This document shows positions 33,243 through 61,242 of a stretch of 64,000 nt of DNA, piece after piece. Under the pieces are notes generated by a model. The model worked only from the letters and a program-made list of their open reading frames with translations, did not search any database and was not told where the DNA came from. Both the position numbers and the translations under genes were made by a program. Numbering within the stretch: position 1 is the stretch's first letter; the number at the start of each line of letters is the position of its first letter. Location of the stretch: positions 32,001 to 96,000 of IMG/VR virus record IMGVR_UViG_3300046467_002136; one strand, written 5' to 3'. This DNA comes from a virus.

Positions 33243-36200
33243 ATGCCAAATGAACTGCTTGATGACATTCAATTTAAAGCCCGAAACGGTGCTCAGATCA
33301 GCGTTGACAGTGCCCAGGGGATTGTCGAATGTTTTGTTTCTGGCATAGGCAACAAAGACAGCGTTGGCGACATCGTTCTCCCTGGCGCCTTCAATGAAAG
33401 TCTAAAAAGAAGAAAGCCCAGAGTGGTCTGGGGACATAGTTGGAACGACCCCATCGGGAAGGTTCTGGAAATCTATGAGGTCTCCAATGCGGACCCTCGA
33501 CTTCCGCCGAAAATGAAGACTGCCGGAATCGGCGGTCTCTTCGCAAAAGTCCAGTTCAATTTGGCCGCAGAAAAGGGACGGGAAGCATTCGCTAACGTCG
33601 CCTTCTTTGGAGAAGAACAGGAATGGTCAATCGGTTATAAGACCCTTCAAGCCACTTTTGACCCAGTTAAACAGGCCAATTTGCTCAAAGAGGTCGAACT
33701 TTATGAAGTAAGCCCTGTACTACATGGTGCCAACCAGCTAACAGGCACGATTTCTGTCAAGGACGGAGAATACGGTGCCTGCGGAACTGACGGTTGTGAA
33801 TGTGGCACAAAAAGTCACATTGCTTCAGAACCAGATATTCAGGTCGAAGCAGAGGAAGCTTTCATTTTCGAAAAGGGTCAGATGATGGGGCGAGTCCCCA
33901 TGCAGATGATTATCATTCCAATGCCCAAGAAACCAGATAGCGACCCCCACGACGCCGATAGCGACATTTGGGCTCGCGGTGAGGCTGGTCCTATTGACAT
34001 GGAAGCCCGCATGGGGCTAGCACGAGAAATTCACGGGCGAACGAAGGTACCGATCAAAATCATTGAGGCCACCGAGAACATGGTGGTGTTCCTCAGAAAG
34101 ATGGTGGATGGCACTACTCGTATGTACCGGATGCCGTACCACAAGACGGATTCTGGACAATACACGTTTGGGAAACCGGCACGGGTCAAGCCCCAAACGG
34201 TTTATACACCGGTTCAACCGAACATGCCGCCCGTCGGCCCAATGAGTCATAAACCGAATCATTATGTCAGTCCGATTCAAGGAAAAGAAACTATAGAAGA
34301 AGCTAAATCTGATTATCTGATTTCCTGTACGTTGGACAACATTTTTGAATTCAAAGATACGCTTCAACCAATTTTCGATTATTACGAAGTGACAGTGACC
34401 CCTAGCGTTAGTGGGTTGTTATGTAGTGATTATCCGTCTGGATTCGAGGACGCAGCAGATACGGCTATCAAAGCTCTAGGTGGAAGACTCGGGCGAGGTG
34501 GTGGCCTGGGAAAAGGCCGTAGGGCTGGGAGAGCCCTCGCCGCAACGTTCGACCCAAAAGCTTGGGATGGTGATGGTGACGGAATAGTTCAAGAAGGTAC
34601 GCCTTTTCAGCGTCCTTCTATTCCCGGCATTAACACAAATTGGCCCGGCGATCCCAAAACCAGAGTAAAACCCGACGATTATCCTGACGACAGTGCCCAA
34701 GTTAGAGATGCACGGAAGCCTCGTCGTGACCCGAATCGCATGCGTCCGGGCAAAGGACCTGCTCGTCGTCGTGGCGTAATCGATGCAAGGTGGGCGGCAG
34801 GTCTGCGCTCGATTAGTCCAAGTAAGGCTGTCAATGCTTCTCTAGATAAGACCTATCAGGAGTTGGTAGATGAGGGGCTTTTCAAGTACCCAACCAAGCC
34901 GCATGTGGCTGGTAAACCCATTGCGGTAGCACATGGTGCACCGGACCTCGCCAAGTTGGAAGAAATTGTAGAGAAGGGCTGGAGACGGGAAGGGGGGTAC
35001 GAGCAAAGACGTATTTATTTCTTTCCCGAAGGACATGAAAGCTATATGGATTGGGAAGGCGATTACGCATGGGCTCCAGAGGACCCTGTCGTTGATGCAG
35101 GAGTCACGGCACAGGTAACTCCCAAAAAGCCGATCACTATTTTCCACGAAGATACGCATGGCTCCGTCAACGCGCAGATTGCAAAGCAGTTGGGTATCTC
35201 TGAATCAGAACTCAAGTCCACCCTGATGGAACAATCCGAGCTGGTGCCGGGAACGTCAGAGGTCGCAGATACTGCGAGGGCAGCGAAGCCAGCGTGGCCC
35301 GACGACCATCGGTCGCCACTCAGCTTACACAGGGCGTTTGGTGTCGACCTATTTGCAGATTACACAGACAACAAAAACGACGGAGGTAATGGCCATACCT
35401 TGCGCGGCAATATGGGTTCAGAAATAATCGTTATGGATAAAGACATCATCGAAGTCGTCGGTGTGCGGCAAACCGGCTGGAACGAAGACCAGATGGTATT
35501 CCACGGTGGTCGACGCTTATACCGGAGTCGCAACTGGGAACAGGGTCGGGATCGTGAGGTTCTTGATGAAGACAAGTTCCAAGAATGGAGATCGCGCACG
35601 AATGAACTCGCTTCTTCCGGTATGCGTTCACGTTCAGGGGGGAGTTCTGGAGATTGGGAAGACTTAAAATCACAACTTCCATCGCAAGCTATTAGAAATA
35701 TGTCTGTTAAGGAACGTAAAGGCCGACTTGCGGATCTGGATAAGAAAATTGATGTTTTAGAACATGACATGGACGAGATGGGATCGCTCGACCCTGAATA
35801 TAACGAAATGAAACAACGTTTATCGCAGTTGGATTCAGAACGAACAAAGCATCTGATTTCTGCGGCAATTGATAATTGGGAAGGTGGACAAAAAAGTTTT
35901 GTTCGATTGCCCGTCGACTCTAAGGGTGTTGAACTTGAGTTAACACAAGATGAGATCGATTCACTTCGTTCCCATATAAAAGCACTGATTGGTAAAAGCA
36001 AAAACAACAAAGTAAATGGCATTTTAGCAAAATATGATCAAAGACTTGTTGGTAATAAAGATGGTGTAGTAAAAATCCCTAAAGAGCAATTTAGCGACCT
36101 TATTAAAGCGTGGGACCAGATTTCTCCGCCTGCCCAAAGTCGGATGCATCCCAAAACGGGTCGTGACATACTCGAATTTGCTGCACTTTCACCAACCCAA

Positions 36201-38474
36201 AAATTTAGGTCGTCGCAACTCGATCTGCCAGACAATAAATATAGAGGATTCGGGGATAAGAGAATCAACAATGGTGCTCATCCTGACATAACTCCAGCCA
36301 ATCAGGCAAAAATGATGGAAGCTATAGGTGCTCCAGAGGGTGAACGTCGGGGTCTTTATTTGCCCGGTCATGACTATTTGATGTTCGCAGACTTAAAAGA
36401 ACACGGCTCTGGTTCACCCCGACGGTGGGCAATCATGGAAGGCCAGTTCATACACGACACCCAACAGGGGCGTTCGCGAGCAGATCTGCCCCAACTCCCC
36501 GGTGAGCCGCTTGTCGAAACGTTAAGGGGTGCCCGTAGGGCCAATATGGGTGGACCCAATATGGGTAGAGGTGGCCGCACGAGAAGACAATCTCGCAGTG
36601 GTCCCCAGTCGCTTCGTGCCATGCCGGGGGACGTGGATGCCCTATTTGACGAACCTGGTGTCCCGGACGTAAGTCCTGATATCGATGTAACGCCAGAAAA
36701 TAAACCAGTAGATACCGCTGCACTTCGTCGTCTAACCGATCGCAGATATGGACCGCCGTTGACAGCAGCGCAAGCGAGGGAACGTCGAGTTGAAAGACTC
36801 GCAAGGCGTTCAGATTCGGTTAATCGACGACGGTCAAATGATCTTTTGTCCCGATGGGATGAAGCAGCCAGTGGCACCAGTCGCGACCCTATGCGTCGTG
36901 GCTTGAGGTCGGAGCAAAAAATCCCACAAAGGGCAACTGCCGACCAAGCTAAACCAGAGACTCGTGGTCGCCCAATGGGACATGTCGTAGAAGATTCTCA
37001 AAAACGCTTTAAGGGTAAGAAGTTTGAAGAAATCAAACCCAGCGATTGGGACGATTTGAGCACTGAAGATAAATTCGCTCTTCTCAGTGCGGAATTGACT
37101 CCGAAGAAGAGCGGGATAAGACAAATCGACTATGACCGTATCTACAATGAATTAGACAAGATTATAGAAAAAAGGGAGCTTCGTAGAGGCCGCTCAGAGG
37201 GTCGCTTTGAAACAATGGCGGAACGACGCGCCCGAAGAGGTGGAGTCGTATTGTCACCCAATGTTCGCAAGCGTGAATCCGAAGATAGAGAGCCCAAACG
37301 AACAACGGCACAAGCAGCCAAAACGGAACGCAAAAAGGTTCTTAATCACCTGGAGTCGTCGTTCGCCAATGCCGATAGTAGAGCAACCGGCGGCGGGGAC
37401 GCAGTTAGAAGTGAACACGCAGACATTTGGTCCGAAGCTTTAGACATAGTTTCAGAGTCGGATGATTTAACCCATTCCCAATTGCGTGCTCTTGATGGAT
37501 TGTTTGACAGTTATCTCAGTAGAGAGTCTGGCGACTTGTCACCGGTTGAAGGCGAACTGCGCGCTGCCGCACTAAGTCGTAAGAGCCACATTGAAGATCT
37601 TCTTTCTGACTATGAGAGTGATCGATTTATTTCTGAAGGAAATACCCCTGAAGTTCGAACCTTGGGTGGGGGTGGCGACGATCTCGACATTATGGAAGTC
37701 AACAACCTTGAACTGTTTTCTTCAGGCGGCATGCGATCTATCCGACAAAACAGGAGCAAGCTGCCGGGTACATCAACGCAAGAGTATGTAGATGCCAGAC
37801 GACGACAAGGTTTGCGTTCGCAAGCTCATACATCCAGAGAAGAAAAGATCGGAGATCTTCGCAACCTTTGGAGTAACGCGCGAGCAACTGGTGACAAAGA
37901 AGAAATGGATCGTCTGGAACGCCAATTGCGAGAGCTTGGAGCTAAACCCAGTAGGGGCAATCCTCGACCACAGTATTCAGCTCCATCACGCAGACTCAAC
38001 CAAAATAATGAAACCAGTACGGGCAACCGAGGCATGCGATCAGAGCGCGAAGGCCGTGCTCAGATTGCGGGCGAAGCCACATGGTTTAAAAAAATTGAAG
38101 ATTCTCTTCAAAAAGAAATCGATATGGCTTCACGAGATAAAGATAAACAAACAGCTGACGCCCTCCGAACCCTAAAACAAACATTGGCTCGCCAGGAGTC
38201 GGGTAAAACCGGCGACAAGCGCACCAACGCTGGCACATTGACTGTCACTCAGGCAGAGATTGACACAATGCTCGATGCTCTAATGCATGTTTTGGATCGT
38301 CAAACTGCTGAAAAGGGGTCCCGAACAGCGATGTTTGCCGAATTAATTGAAAAGCTTTCTTCCGCAGCTATTTCAACTTTTATATTGAGAGAAACAGAAG
38401 AAATTCAGAGTAGAACGCGAAGAGCGACCAACGAAGCAGGTCGTGGAGTCAACATCCCAAATACGGATTTATGA
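33243..38474 (+). CDS. HK97-type prohead protease fused to a ~1570-aa multi-module extension
   Basis: The first ~170 aa carry peptidase S78 motifs (DSVGDIVLPGAF, VWGH, PIGKV, WSIGY, LYEVSPVLHGAN). The extension holds a DGDGDG tag, 6 G[ML]RS sites and an ART-like module. Confidence 0.88.
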   Translation: MPNELLDDIQFKARNGAQISVDSAQGIVECFVSGIGNKDSVGDIVLPGAFNESLKRRKPRVVWGHSWNDPIGKVLEIYEVSNADPRLPPKMKTAGIGGLFAKVQFNLAAEKGREAFANVAFFGEEQEWSIGYKTLQATFDPVKQANLLKEVELYEVSPVLHGANQLTGTISVKDGEYGACGTDGCECGTKSHIASEPDIQVEAEEAFIFEKGQMMGRVPMQMIIIPMPKKPDSDPHDADSDIWARGEAGPIDMEARMGLAREIHGRTKVPIKIIEATENMVVFLRKMVDGTTRMYRMPYHKTDSGQYTFGKPARVKPQTVYTPVQPNMPPVGPMSHKPNHYVSPIQGKETIEEAKSDYLISCTLDNIFEFKDTLQPIFDYYEVTVTPSVSGLLCSDYPSGFEDAADTAIKALGGRLGRGGGLGKGRRAGRALAATFDPKAWDGDGDGIVQEGTPFQRPSIPGINTNWPGDPKTRVKPDDYPDDSAQVRDARKPRRDPNRMRPGKGPARRRGVIDARWAAGLRSISPSKAVNASLDKTYQELVDEGLFKYPTKPHVAGKPIAVAHGAPDLAKLEEIVEKGWRREGGYEQRRIYFFPEGHESYMDWEGDYAWAPEDPVVDAGVTAQVTPKKPITIFHEDTHGSVNAQIAKQLGISESELKSTLMEQSELVPGTSEVADTARAAKPAWPDDHRSPLSLHRAFGVDLFADYTDNKNDGGNGHTLRGNMGSEIIVMDKDIIEVVGVRQTGWNEDQMVFHGGRRLYRSRNWEQGRDREVLDEDKFQEWRSRTNELASSGMRSRSGGSSGDWEDLKSQLPSQAIRNMSVKERKGRLADLDKKIDVLEHDMDEMGSLDPEYNEMKQRLSQLDSERTKHLISAAIDNWEGGQKSFVRLPVDSKGVELELTQDEIDSLRSHIKALIGKSKNNKVNGILAKYDQRLVGNKDGVVKIPKEQFSDLIKAWDQISPPAQSRMHPKTGRDILEFAALSPTQKFRSSQLDLPDNKYRGFGDKRINNGAHPDITPANQAKMMEAIGAPEGERRGLYLPGHDYLMFADLKEHGSGSPRRWAIMEGQFIHDTQQGRSRADLPQLPGEPLVETLRGARRANMGGPNMGRGGRTRRQSRSGPQSLRAMPGDVDALFDEPGVPDVSPDIDVTPENKPVDTAALRRLTDRRYGPPLTAAQARERRVERLARRSDSVNRRRSNDLLSRWDEAASGTSRDPMRRGLRSEQKIPQRATADQAKPETRGRPMGHVVEDSQKRFKGKKFEEIKPSDWDDLSTEDKFALLSAELTPKKSGIRQIDYDRIYNELDKIIEKRELRRGRSEGRFETMAERRARRGGVVLSPNVRKRESEDREPKRTTAQAAKTERKKVLNHLESSFANADSRATGGGDAVRSEHADIWSEALDIVSESDDLTHSQLRALDGLFDSYLSRESGDLSPVEGELRAAALSRKSHIEDLLSDYESDRFISEGNTPEVRTLGGGGDDLDIMEVNNLELFSSGGMRSIRQNRSKLPGTSTQEYVDARRRQGLRSQAHTSREEKIGDLRNLWSNARATGDKEEMDRLERQLRELGAKPSRGNPRPQYSAPSRRLNQNNETSTGNRGMRSEREGRAQIAGEATWFKKIEDSLQKEIDMASRDKDKQTADALRTLKQTLARQESGKTGDKRTNAGTLTVTQAEIDTMLDALMHVLDRQTAEKGSRTAMFAELIEKLSSAAISTFILRETEEIQSRTRRATNEAGRGVNIPNTDL

Positions 38475-38519
38475 TGACGCTGTCTAGTAATACTAATAAG
38501 ATGCAACAGGTAGGATACA

Positions 38520-40322
38520 ATGTCTAATAGCGGTCTCAGAGGCAAACAATCGAAGTACCAATGCATGTTGAGCGGCGAAAAGGTCGCGAAACCGTGTGTT
38601 GGCTGCGTCAACCCTAAGGGGTGTCTGTCCAGAGCCATGCAGTACAAGGAGCCTAAACAAATGGGTCTGGAAGAAGAAAACGTAGTCAAGCTGAATGCCG
38701 ATGGTTCGGTTCTTAAGTGTGCTAAGGACTACAGTACAAGTGATTGCGAGTATACTGCAGGTAGTAAGATATGTGGTAAATGCGGCGCATCAGCGATTGA
38801 ACTGAAAGAGAGTCCAATGGAACAAGCCATCGCTAACGATGAAACTCTGGACGACGAGGACGCAGTGCTGATTAAGGCACTTGAAGAAAAAGCCAGCGTC
38901 ATGGACGAGGTGTCCGAAGTCGAAGCCGAAAAACGTCGTATTGAAAAAGACACTCGCGATACCTCCGATACACAATTGGAGGACGACGACGACGATCCGG
39001 ATCACGATGACCACGAAGTCACAGAAGCCAAATCTGAAGATGATGTGGAAGAAAAGGTCGAAGACGAACCAATCGACGAAAAGACTGAAGACGATGGTTG
39101 GATCGGCCTAGAGGAAGAAGAGAAGGACGAAAAGGCTGGCGTTATGATGCGCGAAAGCCGTCTCAACGTCGATGATGAGGAAGAAGAGGAAGAAGAAGAG
39201 GAAGAGGCTCCTGTTGCTGCTGCTCCTCCTCCTGCTCCTCCCGCTGCTCCTGCTCCCCCTCCTGCTGCCGCTGCGCCACCCGCTGCGCCGCCTCCAGCAG
39301 AAGAAGCCCCTCCGGCTCCTATTGCCGAAGAGGAAGAGGCTCCCCCGGCCCCAGCCCCAGCCCCAGCTCTTGCTGAGGAAGAGGAAGAGGAAGAGGAAGA
39401 GGAAGAGTACGACGAATCCTCAGCCAAGAAATCCATGGGTGCATATTTGTGTGCCCTTGACCGAAAGGTCTACCCCGGCAACGCCTCTGTTTGCGACGAC
39501 TGCCCAGGCGGTTGCGTCTCTGAAAAGGGCATGCCCAGCTTGCTCGAAGTCGAACAAGCTCTTGAAATTCAATTCAAGGGCGACGAATATGCAACGGTAA
39601 TTGATTCCGTGTATTCCGATCGCGCAGATCTTTTTATCTGCGATCTTGATGTCGATGGCAAAAAGGTCATCGAAGTATTCGTTGAAGCTAAGTCCGGAGA
39701 GGTTCTCGGATTCAGCCGTCTTGACGATTCTGTCTTTGAACAAAAAGATGCTTTCGAGACAATTGACCTTGTTGACTTCAGCGAGGCTGCCGAAATCGCA
39801 GTTAAGACAGTCGAAGGCGTAGTCAACGCTGTGGAGCCAGACGTGTTTGAATCTTTCGACTGCTACGCGGTAGAAATTAATGGCGTAGACGGCAAGTCCC
39901 ATGATGTGTTCGTTGCTCTTGACGGTGAAGTCTTGGGTTATGACACATACGAACCAGATGAGGCAGAGGCCATCGAGGCCGAAGCTGCTGAAATCGCCCT
40001 TAAACGTGCGTTCTCAGACGATGAACGCGAAGGTTTGGCCGAAGAAGGCCACGCCATGAAGGATGGTTCGTATCCAATTGTGTCGGAAGAAGATCTCCGC
40101 AATGCGGTTCAGGCTTATGGTCGGGCAAGTAACAAATCAGCAACAAAAGCTCATATTATGAAACGAGCTAAAGATCTTGGTCTGGAAGAACTCATTCCAA
40201 CCAACTGGGTTTCTGGTAGTAACGAAAAAGCGATCATGAGTGCAGACGATGCCGAATTCATGGTTTCTCTGATCGAATTTGAATTACTCGCGGAGGAAAC
40301 CAATAACAACGGTCCCATTTAG
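38520..40322 (+). CDS. Acidic head-associated protein, possible scaffold (Cys clusters, poly-Glu/Pro-Ala linker, PepSY-like repeats, DUF6582-like C-terminus)
   Basis: 600 aa with CGKCGA and CDDCPGGC; C-terminal AMKDGSYPI..EEDLRNAVQAYGRA..HIMKRAKDLG. Start uncertain. Confidence 0.6.
   Translation: MSNSGLRGKQSKYQCMLSGEKVAKPCVGCVNPKGCLSRAMQYKEPKQMGLEEENVVKLNADGSVLKCAKDYSTSDCEYTAGSKICGKCGASAIELKESPMEQAIANDETLDDEDAVLIKALEEKASVMDEVSEVEAEKRRIEKDTRDTSDTQLEDDDDDPDHDDHEVTEAKSEDDVEEKVEDEPIDEKTEDDGWIGLEEEEKDEKAGVMMRESRLNVDDEEEEEEEEEEAPVAAAPPPAPPAAPAPPPAAAAPPAAPPPAEEAPPAPIAEEEEAPPAPAPAPALAEEEEEEEEEEEYDESSAKKSMGAYLCALDRKVYPGNASVCDDCPGGCVSEKGMPSLLEVEQALEIQFKGDEYATVIDSVYSDRADLFICDLDVDGKKVIEVFVEAKSGEVLGFSRLDDSVFEQKDAFETIDLVDFSEAAEIAVKTVEGVVNAVEPDVFESFDCYAVEINGVDGKSHDVFVALDGEVLGYDTYEPDEAEAIEAEAAEIALKRAFSDDEREGLAEEGHAMKDGSYPIVSEEDLRNAVQAYGRASNKSATKAHIMKRAKDLGLEELIPTNWVSGSNEKAIMSADDAEFMVSLIEFELLAEETNNNGPI
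39177..39407 (+). repeat. Low-complexity coding tract: two poly-Glu runs flanking a Pro/Ala-rich linker
   Basis: GAG/GAA runs on both sides of GCT/CCT-rich triplets. Confidence 0.8.
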
Positions 40323-40346
40323 GGACTCCCCGAAAGGTGGGTCCGA

Positions 40347-43300
40347 ATGACCGAGTTCTCTCCAAAAAAAAGAACCTACCTCTCAGCAAGAATCCGTCGT
40401 AGACGACGAGATTTAGAAGCTGCTGGGCTGGACTTTCTTGAACGTAGAAACGTTCTTGCTGCACAGCCAACCCTTAACGCTCAAATTGTAGTTAAGGCGC
40501 TTGATGGCAGTATCGGAGATTCTCCTGAAAAGGAAAAAGATAAGTCCAAGAAGCGCACAGCTGGTTCAGGGGTTAAAGAGATAGAGCCCGAGGTTCGTTA
40601 CGACCCTAAAGGTGTTCGTGATCCTGGACAAGTTTTCAAACTGCATGTCACTGCTCGTGACCTCAAAACAGGTGAAGACAATTTCGGGTGGATTGATCCG
40701 CCCGAGGCAGTGCCGAAAGAAAAACAGCGCTCCAGTATGGCTGACGCTATGCAGTGGCGGGCAACTCGGCCTCAGATTCGGATACGGACTTACGATCAGG
40801 ACCCAAGAACGGGTCAACCAATCGTTGAGACTGAGGAAGAAATTCAGGTCAAAGGTCTCGGTAGAACCCTCAAAGACACCCTTCCGGGCCAAAGTCTTGG
40901 GGGGCGTGCGGCCAGCGGCCTTGGTCTCATTGTTGACGCTTTAGGAAAATTCCGTTGCCCACCCGGCACTCCGGCGGCCAATCAGTTCACCGACGAGTTC
41001 GGGACAAACTGTTTCTCGCCTGTAGAGATATTACGCGACACAGTCCGGGGTCTTGTCAATAGTCTCAGATCCAGCAGAGGCCGAAGCTGGTCATTACCCG
41101 GTCGAGGCGATAGCGAAGCGGAACAGCTGAGGTCCAATATCGCAGAGCGGCGCGCAGCCGCCGGTAAAGCCGGACAGCTTATTGGTAATACTGCGTCGAT
41201 TGAAGCAGCCTTGATTGAACGCAACACCGTTATTCAATCTTTAATGGATCAGTACGGCATTTCAGCTGGAGACGAACTAAACGAGGATATGTGGTCATTG
41301 TTGGAAGCAATGACCGATGTAGATACCGGTGATTTCCCCGACCTGGAATGGAAAGGATTGTTCACCAGCATGTTCGGAGATGAACTCTGGGATGAAAATC
41401 TTACGATGCGTCAAAATTTGGAAAAGATGCGTGCGGCAGTTCGCGAAGACGTATTCAGTTTCATGGGTGCACAAACCAAAACGGGTGCACAAGCAATCCG
41501 GGATTCGTATAACCATAGAGACCCCAAAGCGATGGCAATGGTTGACGGTCTTGTTGGTCGACACGAATCAGCGATGCGAGGATTCTTAGGTTCGACTCTT
41601 CACGAGTTCGGAGACGATCCGAGAGCCATGAGCGGTCTCAAAAAGATTTCTTTCCGAGCCTACAACCCAGATATTGACGACTTCCAAAGCTATTGGGGTA
41701 CCGAAGGGGAATGTATTCCCCTCTGGGAAGGTACCGGCACCGGGATGGCCACCAAACTCCAATTCAACGCTACTGCCATTGCCCTGCGACCGTTTCAAGA
41801 GGGTGGACTGACTCATGAGGGTCCGGACGGTCGACCAAAACTCGTACAGGTTGATGCTGGAGGCGCCTTTTCGGCATCAGTAACAGACGCCGAGAAATGG
41901 GCGGCAATCGCAGACTTTCTTGCACATACTGAAAAAATGGAATACTGGCATAAACAATATGCAAATGACCTTACTGCCTCTGCTCACGGTGGAAGCCTCG
42001 AAGCCTTTTCCATGCATGTCGGATATCACGAACTTGCACACGTTAAACAGTATCAACAGATCGCACAACGAGTATTAGAAACCTATGAGCGTGATGGTCA
42101 ATTCTCGATTTACAAAAGAGACGGCACTGGACTCGAATTATTAACTGCGAATCCTTCTGAATGGACAAACGAACAGTTCGCTATGGCCGTTGCCTCCACA
42201 TTCCAAGATGCGCTTCCACCCGGCACCACTACCGACTTTCCCCCGATGGACATGGTCCAATTTGAGGGAAGCATGCTGCATCTTCTCGCAGGACAATATT
42301 ACCAAGACCTGGTTCAAGGTTTCCTGCAAGCAACCTCTGGTGGTTATGCAGAAGATATTACTCCGGGTCAATATGTGAGTCCTTTGGACGCCAGAGGACT
42401 ACCTGTTCACAATTCGGCGAAAGCCCACCTCAACCTGTTGTTTCTAGAGGGAACAGCTGAACTAGCGGCTCTTAAACGAACCGGAGGCATCGCAGGCGAC
42501 GAACTCAATGAAGTTCTTGATTGGATGGACGCAGACATAGCAGACGTTGTCTACGGGATTCCAGAGGTTGACGTTCCGTTTAAACCCGGTTCCATTGTTT
42601 CCGACACTGACATGGGTGAAGCGCCTTGGGACACTCCTCTCGAACCGGGCGAAGTTATGACGCCATCAGGCATCATTATTCCGACTAGTGCTGTGAAAAA
42701 GATAGAAGCAGCAGCGGCGAGGAAGAGGCAAGAACGCCAACTAACTACGGAGAAGCGAAAGCTCGAAACTGCTAGACGATTGCGGCATCGAACAGAAATA
42801 CACAGTTGGGGCAGCGGCGGGGACGGTGAAATCAAAACTGCGTCTGATGGAACAAAATATGTTTGGATCGGAGCATTAAGTGGTGAGGGCGAATGGCAGG
42901 TGCTATTTGATGACCTGTTTGAACCAGCATTTCTGGAGGAGCTAGAAGGTGTCACCCCACCCGAAGTGGACTATGACCTTCCACCCGGCATGCGCTCTGG
43001 CGGTATGCGCTCTAGGCGAGAATTGGGCCAATTCGACAACGGACCCAGAGTCGGAAAGTTTTCCGGAGAAACACACGAAGAACCAGACGGCTCAGTCTGG
43101 GAGTTTCGCCCTACTCTTCGGGATCGTCCAGAAAAAGGTGGTTTCTGGCGTGATATGACAGACCCTGCAAACCGACGAGAAATAGCCGAACGCGCCACAC
43201 GCAGACGCCAATTGGAAGCTCAAGAGGGTCGAAGCATGGGACGACTTGCTCGCCCGGGGGCTGGAAGCGAATGGGAAAACATTGTCCGGAGGGGCGATGG

Positions 43301-50843: not shown

Positions 50844-50869
50844 ACGTAAACTATTATGGGTGACTACAC

Positions 50870-51514
50870 ATGACAACTGACAGTTACGACATCAAAGGGC
50901 CACAGGACGTTCTACTCGATCTCCCCCAGGAGAGATTGACATCAATTACTCGTGGCCATGGACCAAGACGAGGCAATCTAGAGCGATTGCTTAGATATTG
51001 GCGCCCAATCATGAAAAAGCCCGGCGGGTTCACACGCTGTCGTGTCATTCTTAAAAATCACCCAGAGCTATACCCCCTGGAAAGAATTTGTGCGTGGCTT
51101 CATCACGAAACCACCGGCAAATGGCCCAATGAAGGCTGCCATCATCCGGGTATGAAGAACTGTAAAGGAAAACTTCGAAAGTTGGGATGGACAGATGCCG
51201 AGTGGGGCAAGCGAATACGCAAACGCTTCAAGAAACGTAAAAAAGGTTTTGATGAATCTTGGGATCAGGAAGACGTATTCTTCGGAGACTTCTTAGAGTC
51301 TAAGAGCTCTTATACGACTATAGAGTATAATCCTGTAGTAACTACAAGTGACCTCAAGCATGCTTCAACCGTTTTAGCTGATTTCGTTGTGATGGAAAAG
51401 GACTTCACGTCCTACCTCCGAGATCACAACAATTGGGAATTAGTCGGAGAAGGCGACGACGGCGACGAATGGGTTGCGGATTTCAGCGAAGCTAAGGACT
51501 GTGGGTGCGAATAA
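50870..51514 (+). CDS. Head-associated hypothetical protein with Cys/His motif
   Basis: LLRYW..PGGFTRC...ICAWLHHETTGKWP, a motif I associate with actinophage head proteins. Confidence 0.6.
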   Translation: MTTDSYDIKGPQDVLLDLPQERLTSITRGHGPRRGNLERLLRYWRPIMKKPGGFTRCRVILKNHPELYPLERICAWLHHETTGKWPNEGCHHPGMKNCKGKLRKLGWTDAEWGKRIRKRFKKRKKGFDESWDQEDVFFGDFLESKSSYTTIEYNPVVTTSDLKHASTVLADFVVMEKDFTSYLRDHNNWELVGEGDDGDEWVADFSEAKDCGCE

Positions 51515-51516
51515 AT

Positions 51517-53454: not shown

Positions 53455-56400
53455 TGAGACAGTTCGCTATTATCAAAGACGTTAGTTCAGACAAACTTTT
53501 TGCAATTATTGTCAAAGGTGATGATTTTACTGTCTGCCACGGGGTTCATCCTGTTGGCAAACAGTGGGCTGACAGTTACAACAAGGGTTTAACCAAATCC
53601 ATTTATGACGACCTTCAGCCGGGAATTTCGGTTGGGTCGTTCGCTCCGGTAACCACAACAACGCAAGCTTTGATTGATGAGGCAATCGAAGGGAAACCCG
53701 TTCGTTTTCCTGATCACTCACAGCTTACATATGTCAAGTCAGTTAACTACAGATATGACGGAGAAATCCCCCAAGTAAAAGATGCAGGGCTATCAAATCT
53801 GACAGATAAAGATTTCTTTGTTGGGGCAGACTATAAGGGAGTAGCTTTTCGTGCCGATGCTGCAAGACTTTCACTTTTGGCCAAAGCTCGTTTAGGGCAT
53901 TTTGGAACTGATTCTAAAGGTTTCAATTTTACTGAAAAGGGAACAGATCAGAAAGCTCTAAACGAAGAATTGTTTCAAACTGCTCGGGGGTCCGGCAATG
54001 TCCGTCGTGCAGCTAAAGCAGTGCTTTTAGAAAAGCATTTAAACTTAGAGGAACATCCGGGGTATCTCGGAACAAGAGAACATTCGTCACCTATCCGTAC
54101 AAAAGCCAATCGTCTTGGTCGAAGAATTGGCCGAGGAGGAGGCAGAGGTAGGGGTGGCGGAGGTATTCGCAAAATTGGACGATCGATGCAAGACCCGTTC
54201 GATCCAAAGGCTTGGGATGGAGATCATGACGGGATAGTTCAGGAGGGCACCATATGGGAACGCCCTTCAATACCGGGAGTTAACACGAATCTTCCGGGCC
54301 AACGTCGCACCCGAACAAAGCCTCGCAACTACCCAGCCGATGACGCAGACGGTGTCGAATTCAGATTGCGTAATCGTCGTGAAGAAAACCGTGCCCAAAA
54401 TGAAATTCTAAGTACTCCGGTTGGAGAGGTTATTGAAGAATTCCCCGAAGCAACCGAAGCTCTCAGAAACACACTTTCAGGATTCCCTGAAGGCGATGAC
54501 ATCTGGGAAACTCCACTAAGAGACATCACAGATAATGGAGAATACTTCGGTGAGGATGATTTAGATCGACTTCTTGATGCTGCTGTACCACGGCGTCGAG
54601 AAGGTGCCACTGACAGCTTCTATCGCGATGAACAAGGCATGCGCTCCCAAAGAGACGCACCTCCACCTCCTCCGGTTCCCGAGCGTGAAAGTGAGCGTGA
54701 TTTTGGCGACCCGCCTCCTCCCCCGCCTGTACCCGAACGACGCGATTTACCTGAACCGCCAGAGCCTGGACCCCGAGCATCCGCTCCCGCTCCAGAGCCT
54801 CCAGAGCGGAAGCCACAATTAGTTCTACCTCACGCGGGTACGAGCCATGGGCAGATGACCCCTGAACAGCGACGAGAGCAACTCGACGCTATGGAATACG
54901 AAATCCCTGCCGCCAGAGCGAAGTCACGCCAAATGCGAGAAATCGCTCAAGAACGTAATCAAGATCTGAATTTCTTTAGGGGACGAGGCGCAGACGGGAA
55001 ACGCCGAAACCGGCATCGTCCTGGCAGTGAGGCAGCAGCAGAGCGTGGTGAAAAGCCCTCAGGTATGAACGAGAACGCTTGGCATCGCAATGAAACAGAA
55101 TGGCTTCAAAGACAGATCGACAGTGCCAACGAAGGCGTGTACTTTTGGGACCAAACAGATTACCAATGGTCCTTACAGCAGCAGAGTCTGCGAGAGTTTA
55201 ATGCCCGTGGTGAAATGGCAGCCCCCCGGGGTATGCGTTCTGAACGATATGACATCACACAAGATGAAGCTGGCAAATGGCGTGTGATGGATACGGGCAA
55301 CAGAAACATGCGGCTTCCCGAAGAATATGACAACCGCGAGGACGCTTTAAGAGAAGCGATACGAAGAGATAACCCCCGTGGTGGCATGCGATCTACGCGA
55401 CCGCTTACGCCCGAGGAACGTGCTGACCACGAAGAACGATTCGGCCCGGGAACACGAGATGGTACGCGACCGCTTACGCCCGAGGAACGTGCTGACCACG
55501 AAGAACGATTCGGCCCGGGAACACGAGATGGTACGCGACCGCTTACGCCCGAGGAACGTGCTGACCACGAAGAACGATTCGGCATGCGTTCCTCAATTGA
55601 AGTTGGATCTGGACGCCCTAGTGGAGAACGGATCGCCAGGGCGCGGGAAGAAGTCGCCTTGTCAGCTGGACCCCAGCGGACCAGTGATGGCCGTCTGTAT
55701 GACGAACGAACTCACGGAGAACTAGTAGATGCCTTCACAGGTGCAGGATTGTCTATCTCTGAAGCAGAAGCAGAAGCAGATCGGAGAATGCAACATCGAT
55801 TTGGTGACAGGTGGCTGCAACACCCCTTAAACCGTGATCGCATATCTGGTCGAGGCGGCATGCGCTCGGAAAGCGGAGGCGAATCTCAACAAGATCGAAT
55901 CGATCGCCGAGAACGAGGCGAGTTCGACGAAATGACCCGAGTCGGGCGAGCCGCCAGAGAAACTCATGAAGAGCCAGACGGTTCAGTTTATGAATTCCGT
56001 CCTACTCTTCACGACAAACCTGAACGGGGTGGCAATTGGATTGACATTACAGACCCCGGCCAAAGATCTGAAATGGCTAGGCGTGCTACGCAAAGGCGTC
56101 AACACGAAGCCCAAACGGGCACGAGCATGGGGCGGTTAGCGCGACCGGGTGCTGGCAGTGAATGGGATCGAACTACGAGAGGTGGAATGCGCTCTAGGAC
56201 GCGTGATGCTTCAGTAGATCGTGCCTCTCAATTGCAAGGCATGCGCTCAGGCGGCAGACGACGCCGAGGCCAAGCTCAACCTGGACTTGATCGTCACTCA
56301 GACATTGACGGTCAGATTTGGGAAACTCTTACCGACGCTGAAAGAGCACATGTCGGAACGGCGATTGATACAGAAATGCGTAGACGCATGCACGGACTCG

Positions 56401-58184
56401 CATGGAACGACATGGACGGCATAGATCCTCGCAAGCCAAAACAAAAAAAGCGTTCAGAGATGACCCCCGAAGAAGAAATGGAAGCAACCTTCCACGTCAA
56501 CCCCCTCGGAGGGATCGTAAAACAGTATTTCGATCAAGAAATCAGGCCAGGCTTTAAAAAAGACTATGACGGTGACGAACTTGCCCAAAAACTTAGGGAC
56601 TATGTTTTCACCGACACCGACATCGACACCATCGAAGCCGCGATAGAAAGTCAAATCGAAGCGACTGGTGACGCAACTGACAAAGCTGCCGACCAGCTGA
56701 AAGATCAGTTAAGGGAAATTCGGATCTACCGAAACATGGTCGAACAAAGCAATAACGGCAAAGACTCTGACGCCTTCCAATTCCTTGAGCATCTTACGCC
56801 AACACAGCGCGCCCGAATCTATAACCGTGCAAACGGTGCTGACAAGGATCGTCTGAAAACAAGTAAAGCTTCTTGGGGTCTCAGTAAGGGCAATCGCATC
56901 AATTCAACTATCGGCAGCACGTTCACTGAACGCCAGACCGCCATTGACTCCGTTAAGCCCGGTGTGAGGCGTCGTGCAGGAGAGTTCTCCCGGTCGATGG
57001 CACAACGCATTTGGGCTCCAAACCCGAACAGTGCTTATCGTCGTGCGCTTAGAAAGGCTCGACGCGGAGGGGCAGGAAGTTCTCTTCCCGGTTTCCGTCG
57101 TGAAGAGGATAAAAGATCAATAGTTGCCCGCCGTGTCGCTCAACTGCGACGCAAGTTGCGGGTCGTTAAGGGTCGTAAAGGTATTCAAGGCGCAATCAAT
57201 GCTTCTGAAAAGAAACAAATCAAGAAAGCAGTCGATTTCGACGCAGACGGCAAGTTGGTTACAAGCGACGAAGGTATCGCACGTCTCGGCAAAGCCTCCA
57301 GAGCACTACTCGGCGACAAGTCGCTCCTGAAAGATGTCAGGATGAAGGGTCGTGGCGGTAAGGGCACGGACGGAGCTAGCGAAGATGAGGTCGAGAAGAT
57401 ACTCAATCAGAACCCAGAAATGGCTGTCATTTGGGACGCTATGGGCATGAATGATTTGCCGGTTGTTGTAGACGATGACAACTTCGAAGCCCTGATTGAT
57501 GCTGGCCATCCCGTTATAGGTCGAGGACACGGAAGCGCTAGCAATGCGACCGATTATCTTGATGACGAATTACGTTTCCTCCCCGGAGGAGGCGGTGAAG
57601 CATCAGGCAAGGGTGAGTATTGGTCAACCGGCCAAGGCAGTTGGGGTAGTTGGCAAACTACAGAAGGAGGCAACACAGCTGCTGTTCTTACACCCAATGT
57701 TCGTCGCATGGACGGAGACACTTTAGACGCCGAATCTACCGCTAATAGATCCGTTAGTCAGGCATTCGAGCTTGTGCGAGCAACCTATCCCGGAGATGAA
57801 TTAGAAAAAGCAGACATTGCCGAAGTCGTCTCCAAGATGGATGCTGAAATAGCAAAAATAACAGATCTTGCCGAAGGTGCCCCTATTTGGGAAACCGAAG
57901 TTGGTCAACTCTGGACACACTTGTTGGATTCGATCCGCACCAGCGGCAACCCCGACTCTTTGAATGCCATGTTGCTGCTTAACAAAATTAATAACACCAG
58001 AGGCGGCAGAAACCTTATTGCCCCCATCTTGGGTTATGACACAATCCAGTCGGGTAGCGTAGAGTTGGTGATGAACCGCAGTGCCGTCATCACCCTAGGC
58101 AGAACCCTTGGTTCTTCAGGATTGAGTCAATTCTTTAAGCAAGCATCAGATGTACGCAGCGAAGGCAGAAGGGCTAGAGCATGA
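53454..58184 (+). CDS. Giant polyvalent head-region protein with C-terminal ADP-ribosyltransferase-like domain
   Basis: 1576 aa: DGDHDG tag, 7 GMRS sites, a 69-bp tandem repeat, and C-terminal RG..GxGxYW..GYD..VMNR. Confidence 0.7.
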   Translation: MRQFAIIKDVSSDKLFAIIVKGDDFTVCHGVHPVGKQWADSYNKGLTKSIYDDLQPGISVGSFAPVTTTTQALIDEAIEGKPVRFPDHSQLTYVKSVNYRYDGEIPQVKDAGLSNLTDKDFFVGADYKGVAFRADAARLSLLAKARLGHFGTDSKGFNFTEKGTDQKALNEELFQTARGSGNVRRAAKAVLLEKHLNLEEHPGYLGTREHSSPIRTKANRLGRRIGRGGGRGRGGGGIRKIGRSMQDPFDPKAWDGDHDGIVQEGTIWERPSIPGVNTNLPGQRRTRTKPRNYPADDADGVEFRLRNRREENRAQNEILSTPVGEVIEEFPEATEALRNTLSGFPEGDDIWETPLRDITDNGEYFGEDDLDRLLDAAVPRRREGATDSFYRDEQGMRSQRDAPPPPPVPERESERDFGDPPPPPPVPERRDLPEPPEPGPRASAPAPEPPERKPQLVLPHAGTSHGQMTPEQRREQLDAMEYEIPAARAKSRQMREIAQERNQDLNFFRGRGADGKRRNRHRPGSEAAAERGEKPSGMNENAWHRNETEWLQRQIDSANEGVYFWDQTDYQWSLQQQSLREFNARGEMAAPRGMRSERYDITQDEAGKWRVMDTGNRNMRLPEEYDNREDALREAIRRDNPRGGMRSTRPLTPEERADHEERFGPGTRDGTRPLTPEERADHEERFGPGTRDGTRPLTPEERADHEERFGMRSSIEVGSGRPSGERIARAREEVALSAGPQRTSDGRLYDERTHGELVDAFTGAGLSISEAEAEADRRMQHRFGDRWLQHPLNRDRISGRGGMRSESGGESQQDRIDRRERGEFDEMTRVGRAARETHEEPDGSVYEFRPTLHDKPERGGNWIDITDPGQRSEMARRATQRRQHEAQTGTSMGRLARPGAGSEWDRTTRGGMRSRTRDASVDRASQLQGMRSGGRRRRGQAQPGLDRHSDIDGQIWETLTDAERAHVGTAIDTEMRRRMHGLAWNDMDGIDPRKPKQKKRSEMTPEEEMEATFHVNPLGGIVKQYFDQEIRPGFKKDYDGDELAQKLRDYVFTDTDIDTIEAAIESQIEATGDATDKAADQLKDQLREIRIYRNMVEQSNNGKDSDAFQFLEHLTPTQRARIYNRANGADKDRLKTSKASWGLSKGNRINSTIGSTFTERQTAIDSVKPGVRRRAGEFSRSMAQRIWAPNPNSAYRRALRKARRGGAGSSLPGFRREEDKRSIVARRVAQLRRKLRVVKGRKGIQGAINASEKKQIKKAVDFDADGKLVTSDEGIARLGKASRALLGDKSLLKDVRMKGRGGKGTDGASEDEVEKILNQNPEMAVIWDAMGMNDLPVVVDDDNFEALIDAGHPVIGRGHGSASNATDYLDDELRFLPGGGGEASGKGEYWSTGQGSWGSWQTTEGGNTAAVLTPNVRRMDGDTLDAESTANRSVSQAFELVRATYPGDELEKADIAEVVSKMDAEIAKITDLAEGAPIWETEVGQLWTHLLDSIRTSGNPDSLNAMLLLNKINNTRGGRNLIAPILGYDTIQSGSVELVMNRSAVITLGRTLGSSGLSQFFKQASDVRSEGRRARA
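55394..55583 (+). repeat. Perfect 69-bp tandem repeat, 2.75 copies (TRPLTPEERADHEERFGPGTRDG)
   Basis: Identical units start at 55394, 55463 and 55532, in frame, with GMRS on both sides. Confidence 0.95.
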
Positions 58185-58495
58185 TTACTCCAGAAAATCA
58201 TAAGGAATATCACATAATGCTCTCAACGCTTCTGCGGTACCCCCCGTTCTCCACTGAAGACGACGAAAACGGCGACGAATTGGATTACATCGCTGGTAAA
58301 GAACTAATGGCCTACCACGACGAGGTTATCGCGCCAGCATCCAAAGGCGGAAACCTAGATTGGGAATTAGAGGGTGAACCCTTCGAAGAGTTCAGAGAAA
58401 AATGGAAAGACGAACTTGAAGAGGCTGAACTTTACCAATCCAGACATGGTGACGATTTCGCTGCCGCCGCAAAAGCTGCCAGCGGCGATGAATAA
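58181..58495 (+). CDS. Small acidic protein (possible immunity/antitoxin)
   Basis: 104 aa, D/E-rich, ATGA-coupled to the ORF ending in the ART-like domain. Confidence 0.6.
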   Translation: MITPENHKEYHIMLSTLLRYPPFSTEDDENGDELDYIAGKELMAYHDEVIAPASKGGNLDWELEGEPFEEFREKWKDELEEAELYQSRHGDDFAAAAKAASGDE

Positions 58496-58497
58496 CG

Positions 58498-61242
58498 ATG
58501 CCCGAGGCGCGCACGGACTCCGAAACTGCCAAGAAAGCACAGGCTCTAAGAGAGGCTGCTGAACTCGGCTGTACTGGTGCGCACCGTCATCCCGATGGAA
58601 CATGGATGGCGTGCAGCACAATGCAAGAATATGAGCGTCTCACCAATGGCGAAAAAGAAAAAAGCTCTTTAGATCTCATTGAGGAAACCCAGAAGATCCG
58701 TTCCCAAAAGGGTCGCAAGCGCAAGAAGAAAACTAAGCGCCAATGGGACAAGTTAAGGGAGCGAGGTGTCACTGGAATTGACACTCTGTCTGGTGGTGGA
58801 CTCGTATCCGGTAAGGGTATGACTTTTCGACCCGTAGACGGTGACACAGACGTTTTCGACAACATCAACCAAGCGCGTCGTAGAGCACGCCAATTGGGAT
58901 GTATCGGTGTATCTAGACGTACTTCCCGTAGTGGACGTAGGGTTTGGACCCCGTGCACCAACATGACGGACTATGCGCGCGCCACTGGTAGTACGGCTCT
59001 TGGAAGGCGCTACCAGCAAAGACTGGAACGTCAACGAATACGAAATATTGTTCGTGAAGAGCTATCTAAAATGAAACGACGTAAAAAGCGTTTATTTGAA
59101 GAAGTGTACGAAGCCAAAGGTATCGGTCGCCGTATCGGACGTGCTGCACGGTTTGACCCGAAGGCTTGGGATGGCGATCATGACATGATTGTCCAAGAGG
59201 GCACCCCATTTGAACGTCCTGCCATTCCTGGAATTAATACCAATCTTCCGGGGAGAAAAAAAAGAGGTATGCGCTCTGTTTGGGATGGGAAACCCGGCAC
59301 AGTTCAACGCCCAGAACCTAAAGCAAAACCAAAACCCGTAACCGACGAAGTCAGAATGGCGTCTCTCGGTAAGGAAATTGACAAGTTGCGGATAGGGAAA
59401 CTTAACCCTCTGCTTCAAGAACTCAAAAAAGCCCAAAAAGAAGGCGACCACGCGGGAGTTCTTCGCATCAGAAACTTGATGGCGCCACTTCAACAAGAAG
59501 AATCACGTCTTCGTGAAGAACTCGGCACCGCCATGGGTAAAAGCAGATCGGATCTATCGTTAGGAGCTTCTGCAAATGGTGGCGTGCGTTCCCGCCGTCA
59601 AATCGATCATATGCTTCAGACTCCGCAGCAAAATATTGCCGATATGGAAGCTGACATAGATGAGTATTTCGCCTTTTTGGATGAACATAGTCGAATTGAT
59701 TTTCAGAGACATTCCATCTATCGACCTGGCGATAAACGTATTCGGAAAATAGGAGAACCGTCAACAGACCAATATTCGAGTGGAGAAGAGTATGGAGCTT
59801 TACCTGAGATAGACCAAGACATTATCGAAGAGCATGACGATCTTTGGGGAAAGGTCGAGTGGTGGGCGAACTTTATTGAACAGTCAAGGATTGAACGCAA
59901 CGACTTGACAACCGAACTTAGAGAAAAAGAAGACGCGTTAGATAGCGCAACGGAAAGCGCTCATAGGCCATATCACGCAGATACTAGAGATTTCTTAAAA
60001 GCCATCGACGGTGACGAAGATAGAGACACCTTTATTGAGCGCACATACGGCCCCTTCGAAACCAACCAGAGAGATCTGGAATACGGTGGCAGTAGTGAAC
60101 CTGAGTGGCGTGAAGATCAATGGGGAAGGGATACCTTCAACCAGTACACCGACTACTGGGATGATTTGATTCGGATACGAGAAGAAACTTCATATATACA
60201 ATATGAAATAAACTCGATTCAGGATCAGATTGATAAATACCATGGGAACGGTACTGAATTCGCCAGAGACGATTATCGTAAAGCTCTAGAAGCCAAGCTG
60301 TCTAAAAAGACCAGCTCAGAAGTGATCAAGGGTGAGCTCGCTGAAGGGCGAATTGCTCTTGATCCTACTCAGGGTTTGCGTTCGCGTAGAGATCGTTTAA
60401 GCCCTAGTGAAAAAGAGTGGCTTAAGATGCTTCAAGATAATCCTGGTCTTTGGGCTGAAGCCCCAGCAAGCGTGCGAGCGATTGCTTCAGACAAGATGAA
60501 ACGTGAAGCACTCCAAATACGCAACGATTTTTCAGGTGGGATGCGAAGCGGACGCTTTGGTAGCGGCGGAAAAGCAATGGGCCAGCGAATACTTGCCAAG
60601 GTCAAGCCAGAACACAGAAACAAGGAAGATAGAACCCTTTACTTCATTGGCGGCACAACGGGTTCCGGTAAATCCACTTTAGTAAAAAATGGCTCCTTCG
60701 GCGTTCCGAACGATACTGAAGCTGCCCACATAGATCCGGATTTCATCAAAACGGGCTTAGAGGGCTGGGACCCCAAAAACGCCACCGCGTTTCACGGAGC
60801 ATCCGTTACAGCAACTCGCGGCGTTCTAGATAGTGCTGCCAACGCCAAGATGGACGTTGTTGTACAAGGCACAGGGAAACGAGCCGAACACCTCCATACT
60901 GCCAGATCGCGCGGCTATTCGACTGTTGGGCATTTTGTTTATGTCCCCGGCAACGAGGCGAATAAAAGAATTGCTCAACGAACAGCGGCTGGTGGGCCTG
61001 ACATCCCAACCGGTTTTGGTACCCAAATCGCTGGAGAACTAAAAGGCCATGTAAGCAGACAAATAACACAAGGCTTATATGACGAGTTCTTCTTATGGGA
61101 CAATACGGGAGATACACCAAGATTGATAGCATTCAGAAATAGGGATGGGCATTTCGAAATCAATAGCAGAACTGAGTTCGATGCTTTCTTTAGTGAGACC
61201 GGCGCAAAGTATGTAGAAAGGTATTGGAAAGATAACCAATGA
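58498..61242 (+). CDS. Polyvalent head-region protein with C-terminal zeta-toxin-like P-loop kinase
   Basis: 914 aa: two LGCxG..W.(P/A)C repeats (DUF3721-like), DGDHD tag, 4 G[MLV]RS sites, GGTTGSGKST, HIDPDFIK, LWDNTG. Confidence 0.78.
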   Translation: MPEARTDSETAKKAQALREAAELGCTGAHRHPDGTWMACSTMQEYERLTNGEKEKSSLDLIEETQKIRSQKGRKRKKKTKRQWDKLRERGVTGIDTLSGGGLVSGKGMTFRPVDGDTDVFDNINQARRRARQLGCIGVSRRTSRSGRRVWTPCTNMTDYARATGSTALGRRYQQRLERQRIRNIVREELSKMKRRKKRLFEEVYEAKGIGRRIGRAARFDPKAWDGDHDMIVQEGTPFERPAIPGINTNLPGRKKRGMRSVWDGKPGTVQRPEPKAKPKPVTDEVRMASLGKEIDKLRIGKLNPLLQELKKAQKEGDHAGVLRIRNLMAPLQQEESRLREELGTAMGKSRSDLSLGASANGGVRSRRQIDHMLQTPQQNIADMEADIDEYFAFLDEHSRIDFQRHSIYRPGDKRIRKIGEPSTDQYSSGEEYGALPEIDQDIIEEHDDLWGKVEWWANFIEQSRIERNDLTTELREKEDALDSATESAHRPYHADTRDFLKAIDGDEDRDTFIERTYGPFETNQRDLEYGGSSEPEWREDQWGRDTFNQYTDYWDDLIRIREETSYIQYEINSIQDQIDKYHGNGTEFARDDYRKALEAKLSKKTSSEVIKGELAEGRIALDPTQGLRSRRDRLSPSEKEWLKMLQDNPGLWAEAPASVRAIASDKMKREALQIRNDFSGGMRSGRFGSGGKAMGQRILAKVKPEHRNKEDRTLYFIGGTTGSGKSTLVKNGSFGVPNDTEAAHIDPDFIKTGLEGWDPKNATAFHGASVTATRGVLDSAANAKMDVVVQGTGKRAEHLHTARSRGYSTVGHFVYVPGNEANKRIAQRTAAGGPDIPTGFGTQIAGELKGHVSRQITQGLYDEFFLWDNTGDTPRLIAFRNRDGHFEINSRTEFDAFFSETGAKYVERYWKDNQ

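Follow-up and report, generated by a model that had tools for sequence, protein, structure and literature searches.

A recurrent G-[M/L/V]-R-S peptide at module junctions in the giant head-block proteins of an uncultured phage: a candidate clade-specific processing site

The 64,000-nucleotide stretch of viral DNA analysed here (the window) covers positions 32001-96000 of the IMG/VR record IMGVR_UViG_3300046467_002136, which is 114,037 bp long; counts given as genome-wide cover the whole record. Its subject is a block of eight plus-strand genes, A to H, at 33243-61242, between the portal gene and the gene for an HK97-type major capsid protein, and in particular a tetrapeptide, G-[M/L/V]-R-S, that recurs in four of the giant proteins encoded there. 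Each occurrence of the tetrapeptide is referred to as a site. A preliminary description, made from the letters alone, had placed the block between portal and capsid genes and had assigned an S78 prohead protease domain to it, and Pfam matches agree on all of this (PF04860, PF04586 and PF05065). The genes are listed below.

31150..33144, plus strand: portal protein, upstream border of the block (Pfam PF04860, E 1.5e-47)
33243..38474, plus strand: protein A, 1743 residues; S78 prohead protease domain (residues 24-169; PF04586, phrog_80), then a putative polyprotein with 6 sites
38520..40322, plus strand: protein B, 600 residues; conserved head-block protein with homologues in 10/10 related genomes at 40-59% identity, no Pfam match, 0 sites
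40347..47078, plus strand: protein C, 2243 residues; 7 sites after a site-free N-terminal 883 residues that contain a zincin-like domain
47078..50431, plus strand: protein D, 1117 residues; 0 sites, a divergent copy of the shared DGD tag (see below) near residue 168
50870..53454, plus strand: proteins E (214 residues) and F (649 residues); conserved core of the block with homologues in 10/10 related genomes, 0 sites
53454..58184, plus strand: protein G, 1576 residues; 7 sites, shared tag near residues 245-290
58498..61242, plus strand: protein H, 914 residues; 4 sites, DUF3721 at residues 13-43, shared tag at 215-255, zeta-toxin-type kinase at 701-831
61466..62800, plus strand: HK97-type major capsid protein, downstream border of the block (Pfam PF05065; 39% identical to HK97 gp5 over 275 residues), 0 sites

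Residues 24-169 of protein A match PF04586 at 42.1 bits (curated cut-off 21), and phrog_80 at E 1.7e-26. The order portal, S78-headed protein, further block genes, capsid is the same in 10 relatives. Proteins B, E and F have no significant Pfam match, and F has no match among cultured phages. Judged by capsid and protease, the nearest cultured phages are Gordonia Bendigovirus phages and Brevibacterium phage Cantare, at 39-48% identity; searches of cultured phages for near-identical DNA and for related proteins found no relatives of the putative cargo proteins. Hosts in this clade are probably Actinobacteria, and one database hit carries the name Acidimicrobiia.

A script run over the block proteins counted 19 GMRS, 4 GLRS and 1 GVRS, all in A (6), C (7), G (7) and H (4), and found no G-[M/L/V]-R-S in B, D, E, F, the portal protein or the capsid protein. 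This reproduces exactly the number, coordinates and host proteins of the 24 sites that had previously been counted by hand. They are given below, each named by its protein and residue; for H the remarks refer to an AlphaFold2 (AF2) model and its confidence score, the predicted local distance difference test (pLDDT).

34800..34811, plus strand: A520, GLRS
35619..35630, plus strand: A793, GMRS
36900..36911, plus strand: A1220, GLRS
37728..37739, plus strand: A1496, GMRS
37809..37820, plus strand: A1523, GLRS
38031..38042, plus strand: A1597, GMRS
42987..42998, plus strand: C881, GMRS, in tandem with C886
43002..43013, plus strand: C886, GMRS
43302..43313, plus strand: C986, GMRS
44931..44942, plus strand: C1529, GMRS
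45198..45209, plus strand: C1618, GMRS
45363..45374, plus strand: C1673, GMRS
45624..45635, plus strand: C1760, GMRS
54636..54647, plus strand: G395, GMRS
55230..55241, plus strand: G593, GMRS
55383..55394, plus strand: G644, GMRS
55581..55592, plus strand: G710, GMRS
55857..55868, plus strand: G802, GMRS, left edge of a cassette shared with C885-989
56184..56195, plus strand: G911, GMRS, right edge of the same cassette
56238..56249, plus strand: G929, GMRS
59266..59277, plus strand: H257, GMRS, inside a segment of pLDDT below 50 (246-279)
59581..59592, plus strand: H362, GVRS, in the break between helices 318-354 and 366-373
60373..60384, plus strand: H626, GLRS, in a pLDDT dip at about 611-630; conserved in homologues
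60538..60549, plus strand: H681, GMRS, immediately before the zeta-kinase module, in a segment of pLDDT below 50 (679-688)

From the composition of 6476 residues, 0.09 copies of GMRS are expected where 19 are seen, and 2000 shuffles gave 0.086 on average and 2 at most, in keeping with the earlier estimate of less than one copy by chance. GMRS is the commonest tetrapeptide of these giant proteins and occurs in no other open reading frame (ORF) of at least 60 amino acids in the genome. Elsewhere in the genome G-[M/L/V]-R-S is found in one real-looking gene (GVRS, in a 491-residue ORF at 7144-8619 on the minus strand) and in three short ORFs. The codons vary from site to site (Gly GGT, GGC, GGG or GGA; Arg CGC, CGT, CGA, CGG or AGG; Ser TCN or AGC), and thus conservation is at the level of the protein. 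The consensus is [R]-[G/R/Q]-G-M-R-S-x-R, with arginine at the second position after the serine in 14 of the 24 sites; this continuation, like the synonymous codons, had been noted before and was confirmed. The flanks are rich in arginine and glycine (RGG 14 times, GRG 13 times), and at most of the sites they are unrelated to one another. Sites C881 and C886 are five residues apart (GMRSGGMRS, 42987-43013), and other neighbouring sites are separated by spacers of 18 and 27 residues, so that some modules would be tiny peptides if every site were cut.

The protein in the tape-measure position (1256 residues, 12695-16465, minus strand; placed by synteny with Gordonia phage Hanem) does not contain the exact peptide. 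This putative tape measure does have G-M-x-S three times (GMSS, GMKS and GMLS), against 0.5 expected.

The sites had been said to fall at domain edges, and this is borne out by the character of their flanks, by modelling of H, by alignments with homologues and by the positions of breakpoints. The flanks (24 residues around each site) are far more hydrophilic than background: in 20,000 random draws no value was as low. In the AF2 model of H, built from 66 homologues and with a mean pLDDT of 80, all four sites lie in low-confidence breaks between confident segments. A model of G380-960 from a 10-sequence alignment has a mean pLDDT of 50 and places 7/7 sites in coil, to which little weight can be given as the model is too poor to define borders.

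When H is compared with homologues at 42-88% identity, G-[M/L/I/V]-R-S-x-R is kept at the joints whilst the flanks diverge, and entire modules with the peptide at their ends come and go from phage to phage. At the H362 joint, G-[M/L/I/V]-R-S is found in all aligned homologues that possess the joint; at the joint before the kinase (H681) homologues carry GMRS, GLRS, GMRA, GFRS or GMRH. Breakpoints tell the same story for all four site-bearing proteins. Of 50 internal ends at which strong local matches to relatives stop, 19 are no more than 12 residues from a site, where about 5 are expected, and the P values for clustering are 0.013 for A, 0.007 for C, 0.002 for G and 0.018 for H. Within the block itself, a cassette common to C885-989 and G801-914 (62% identity) has a site at both ends, and a second stretch is shared between C1490-1713 and G785-953. 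Sequence comparison and modelling thus support G-[M/L/V]-R-S as a real protein-level signal at module junctions.

The content of the modules is less clear, with only the zeta kinase and DUF3721 above Pfam thresholds. The C-terminal kinase of H matches PF06414 at E 4.4e-10 and has a Walker A motif, GGTTGSGKS; its modelled fold matches epsilon/zeta and PezT proteins (Foldseek 1gvn_B, E 3e-8, and also 2p5t). By sequence and model, the identification of the last module of H as a zeta/PezT-type kinase is solid, and it is the sole module firmly identified. Of the labels suggested in the preliminary description, it is the zeta kinase that stands, on both its Pfam match and its fold. The ParB-like label reduces to a DGHHR box at C1432, a motif-level resemblance inside the segment between sites 986 and 1529, and the other two are sub-threshold leads: the C-terminal 645 residues of G to an ADP-ribosyltransferase (ART-PolyVal, language-model score 0.85) and the C-terminal 481 residues of C to DUF3626 (score 0.89). 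Pfam models for PolyVal domains gave no match in the block proteins, and searches of solved structures with the sequences of A, C and G were unproductive.

In C, a HELAH motif at residue 561 is followed by a conserved E-x-x-x-E, within a zincin-like domain at about residues 240-830. The HExxH and the downstream glutamate are conserved in six aligned genomes, and no Pfam metallopeptidase family matches the domain even at E up to 5.

The N-terminal parts of the chains have features of their own. A tag of about 40 residues, FDPKAWDGDxDG-IVQEGT-PFERPSIPGINTNLPG, lies near the end of the site-free N-terminal part of A (34533-34667), G (54186-54323) and H (59140-59265), with a divergent copy in D (47555-47647), and is kept in homologues at about 50% identity. 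This DGD tag is a candidate loading signal or a candidate calcium-type DxDxDG loop. The N-terminus of H also has the DUF3721 pattern LGCxGAH...W(M/T)xC twice, at 58534-58626 (residues 13-43) and at about 58870-58960 (residues 125-153 or so); the second copy holds residues that are invariant in all 66 aligned homologues.

Related phages show how general the peptide is. A search of IMG/VR with the capsid gene gave 413 related stretches, of which the best 80 were used as loci. Over these 80, G-[M/L/V/I]-R-S occurs 0.86 times per 1000 residues in ORFs upstream of the capsid gene vs 0.076 downstream. H has 111 database homologues, in many of which GMRS is the top tetrapeptide, and 329 database proteins of 958-3051 residues have a near-identical S78 domain at their start. 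The form met most often in the protease-headed proteins is G-Φ-[R/A/S]-S (Φ, hydrophobic), with R, A and S often mixed in one protein. The region from protease to capsid was rebuilt for ten relatives (G001-G010, from loci L083-L101); it spans 16-48 kb in relatives whose capsids are about 70% identical. Each punctuated clade has its own strongly enriched peptide, confined to giant mosaic proteins, with copy numbers as follows.

G001: STRS, 35 (0.47 expected)
G002: I-SGRM-G, 14 (0.15 expected)
G003: GLSS-G, 21 (0.36 expected)
G004: GMRS and GLRS, 6 and 6 (0.11 and 0.31 expected)
G005: GLRS, 8 (0.31 expected)
G006: degenerate [IV]-S-G-x-M, 9
G007: [RG]-[FL]-SSG, 20
G010: GMRS, 8 (0.13 expected)

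The remaining two, G008 and G009, have no giants (all their proteins are under 1311 residues) and no enriched peptide. In the B-, E- and F-like proteins and the capsids of the ten relatives, the exact junction peptide was found once only, as GLSS in the F-like protein of G003. The peptide appears to be a clade-specific code, sister clades carrying G-Φ-[R/A/S]-S, STRS, I-S-G-x-M or [FL]-SSG at the corresponding positions of their sequences.

Some relatives are notable in other ways. The S78-headed protein of G007 is 4740 residues long. A group of S78-headed proteins of about 1000-1160 residues (P0185, P0187, P0207, P0215, P0216, P0225 and similar), with protease domains at 69-71% identity, lacks G-Φ-x-S and repeats GDQPVR(A) three to seven times, which may be another code or a structural repeat. 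In the cultured phages Hanem and Cantare there is no enrichment of G-[M/L/V]-R-S. DARTPTAH of Hanem was considered as an analogous code and rejected, being a repeat inside one annotated minor tail protein and not a linker code; Hanem gp29 (locus L001, 12402-14057), annotated as a minor tail protein, has DPRLTDARTPTAHTH six times, a tail-fibre-type repeat unrelated to the code.

One peptide at tens of places in several genes, swapped as a set in the next clade, is the pattern that sites recognised by an enzyme acting in trans would show, the enzyme most likely being a protease. Cleavage is the most economical reading because the sites lie in exposed linkers at module borders, because two candidate proteases are present in the block, and because related phages replace the peptide throughout their own polyproteins. 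The reading favoured here, with a probability of roughly 0.6, is that G-[M/L/V]-R-S would be a junction peptide at which a phage-encoded protease cuts giant head-block polyproteins into modules. Each polyprotein would start with a site-free part of 259-883 residues, with the DGD-type tag there in A, G and H, and this part would bring the whole chain into the prohead. After loading, the chain would be cut at the junction peptides, and the released pieces (the zeta-type kinase, the ParB-box module, candidate ADP-ribosyltransferase-like modules and small cassettes) would stay in the head and be delivered with the DNA. Cleavage, the bond, the enzyme, capsid loading and injection are all matters of inference.

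Several observations weigh against this reading, or at least against its simplest forms. The motif is missing from the capsid protein. In sister lineages, even inside one and the same protein, position 3 of the peptide varies between R, A and S (GMAS, GFAS, GLSS), so that arginine is not the conserved determinant and cutting cannot follow a simple P1-Arg rule. Clades with unrelated codes have S78 domains that are 72-81% identical, and comparison of R-type with A/S-type domains in 120 protease-headed proteins found no residue in it that tracks the code; no convincing pocket switch emerged, the discriminating columns being mostly outside the domain core. A putative capsid junction, [YF]-[KR]|[ST], itself uncertain, is the same in clades with unrelated codes. 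So few modules have an identity that 'effectors' is an assumption for all but the zeta kinase, and homologues of H or F were found in no cultured phage.

The preliminary description had proposed not only processing but a particular bond, GMR|S, by analogy with the Lys|Ser cut of HK97. Processing survives as the most economical reading, the peptide being replaced clade by clade. The bond and the analogy are not supported, position 3 being R, A or S in sister lineages, and the capsid protein is free of the motif. The junction considered in this capsid, Y-R|T, is uncertain and has only Φ-R-[S/T] in common with the motif. Its wider form, [KR]|[ST]-[LIV]-G, was tried as a counterpart of the HK97 maturation site K|SLG and rejected: in a multiple alignment K103|S104 falls 47 residues downstream of it, close to T149|A150, and the junction was consequently dropped as evidence. 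In the scaffold (delta) domain of the capsid protein, residues 14-17 (61505-61516) read A-M-R-T, where other clades have A-L-R-x and G005 has A-L-Q-S; this faint echo of the junction peptide is probably due to chance.

If the sites are cut, the S78 prohead protease and the zincin of C are candidates at roughly equal odds, each holding a minority share of the total. For S78 there is the precedent of prohead proteases in other phages, the fusion of S78 to a site-bearing chain in hundreds of proteins, and the serine that follows the proposed cut, as in K103|S104 of HK97. An activity confined to the prohead would also let one signal load the chain before it is cut. The conserved domain and the want of a code-tracking residue, described above, count against it, as do the motif-free capsid and the variable position 3.

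That the zincin (HELAH...E, C ~240-830) and not S78 reads the code is a tentative variant of the cleavage reading, in which the cut would fall at G|Φ, before a hydrophobic P1' residue, either in the head or after injection. Many zincins prefer a hydrophobic P1', and the position that tolerates M, L, V, I and F suits such a pocket. The zincin domain is far more divergent than S78, leaving room for a change of specificity. A profile built from six aligned genomes finds it in 9/9 phages with giant punctuated proteins and in 0/2 without, whereas S78 is present in all; however, as part of a giant protein the domain may trivially be missing wherever giants are missing, and it may be one more cargo module among the others. 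In the proposal of Iyer et al., polyvalent proteins would be processed by metallopeptidase domains (PMC5512222). Yet the call itself rests on HExxH and a conserved downstream glutamate, with no Pfam metallopeptidase family behind it; STRS and I-S-G-x-M do not conform to a G|Φ rule; and the putative tape measure of this genome lacks the exact motif. In addition, a protease active in the cytoplasm would sever the modules from their loading signal before packaging, unless it were kept inactive. Similarity within code classes was tried as a pointer to the zincin and rejected, as every protein (S78, capsid, B, E and F too) shows greater similarity inside its class than between classes. For each of them the classes are simply the clades, and so simple covariation cannot decide between the two enzymes.

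The peptide might instead act uncut, as a recurring element by which the cargo chain docks or packs against the inner wall of the capsid or the DNA, in the manner of encapsulin cargo-loading peptides, or as the target of a modifying enzyme. The Arg/Gly-rich flanks resemble those of nucleic-acid-binding linkers, and the HK97 fold of the capsid is common to encapsulins. However, an invariant four-residue core in unrelated flanks is typical of recognition by an enzyme and not of a binding interface, and clades with different codes still have capsids that are 72-83% identical, contrary to what a conserved docking pocket would lead one to expect. The tandem C881/C886 and the spacers of 18-27 residues also look more like the leftovers of processing than like binding units, and this explanation is improbable. 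Far more so is the proposal that the peptide has no function of its own and is a scar or hitch-hiker of module shuffling, a recombination boundary or a passenger of copied cassettes: modules are clearly shuffled at the sites and some sites were copied with cassettes (C886/C986 with G802/G911; C1490-1713 with G785-953), but codons differ at every degenerate position, so that there is no conserved DNA word for recombination and a DNA-level motif is rejected, flanks are unrelated at the majority of the 24 sites, orthologous joints retain the peptide even in homologues as low as 42% identity, and shuffling alone does not explain one peptide per clade across tens of sites in several genes.

Cleavage at the junction peptides would have several consequences. 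It would explain how dozens of proteins could be loaded and delivered with few loading signals, and would provide a sequence rule for module borders in thousands of unannotated giant phage proteins. The replacement of the code clade by clade would amount to a natural series of proteases with re-programmed short specificities, offering matched sets of protease and site that could be used as orthogonal tools. A broader picture, with perhaps an even chance of being right, is of an uncultured clade of 75-160-kb phages with plug-and-play cargo: 16-48 kb of interchangeable modules per genome, any of which would become deliverable by landing between junction peptides, and a cleavage code that co-evolves with the phage protease. 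Were the peptides cut, a quarter of the 114-kb genome of the present phage would encode proteins destined for injection, hardly any of which have a recognised function.

Tailed phages would here be using polyproteins as a means of carrying capsid cargo. No description of the motif, or of polyprotein cargo cut by prohead proteases, was found in papers, all the 'GMRS' matches listed being the GmrS restriction enzyme, and the earlier remark that the motif is undescribed thus holds for the searchable literature.

The closest parallels are the internal head proteins processed in the prohead. In SPN3US and T4, prohead proteases cut such proteins at short motifs (PMC10052503), I/L-x-E in the case of T4 gp21. 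These systems (T4 gp21, SPN3US gp245 and the phiKZ type) resemble the present one in having head-block genes, a phage protease, a recurring short motif and cargo thought to be ejected with the DNA. However, in SPN3US the mapped cuts, apart from a self-cleavage product of the protease, remove N-terminal propeptides (PMC10052503), whereas here as many as 7 sites in one protein would set free many internal modules from what would be a true polyprotein. The protease here is of the S78/HK97 type and not the T4 type, and the motif differs from clade to clade and is absent from the capsid; with no G-[M/L/V]-R-S in capsid or portal, it is not common to the other candidate substrates of the protease.

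HK97 maturation shares the S78 family with the present block, and the likeness extends to the capsid protein, 39% identical to gp5, and to the serine after the proposed cut, as in K|S. HK97 gp4 is not, to our knowledge, a processor of cargo polyproteins. In HK97, gp4 cuts gp5 at K103|S104 (PMC10275583), a site that aligns elsewhere in this capsid, and the residue before the serine is R, A or S in the sister lineages here.

In content, the nearest relatives are the polyvalent proteins, for which Iyer, Burroughs, Anand, de Souza and Aravind predicted in 2017 proteolytic processing into units (PMC5512222). These too are giant multi-domain phage proteins encoded beside virion genes; the zeta kinase is the firm point of likeness here, the zincin-like domain and the ParB-type box being resemblances at motif level and the ART modules candidates. 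Junction peptides are not named in that paper, where the word 'linker' does not appear (PMC5512222), whereas here there is an explicit clade-specific code and a chain fused to a capsid protease; if the sites are cut, the 2017 prediction gains defined sites. The logic of a protease within the chain and repeated short sites is also that of eukaryotic RNA virus polyproteins and of herpesvirus pUL26, in which protease and substrate form one fusion protein that has release and maturation sites (PMC4498786). The likeness is one of logic only, as here the virus is a tailed phage and the products would be capsid cargo and not replication or scaffold proteins. Judged from its sequence, the main departure of the present system from known processing would be a true polyprotein architecture.

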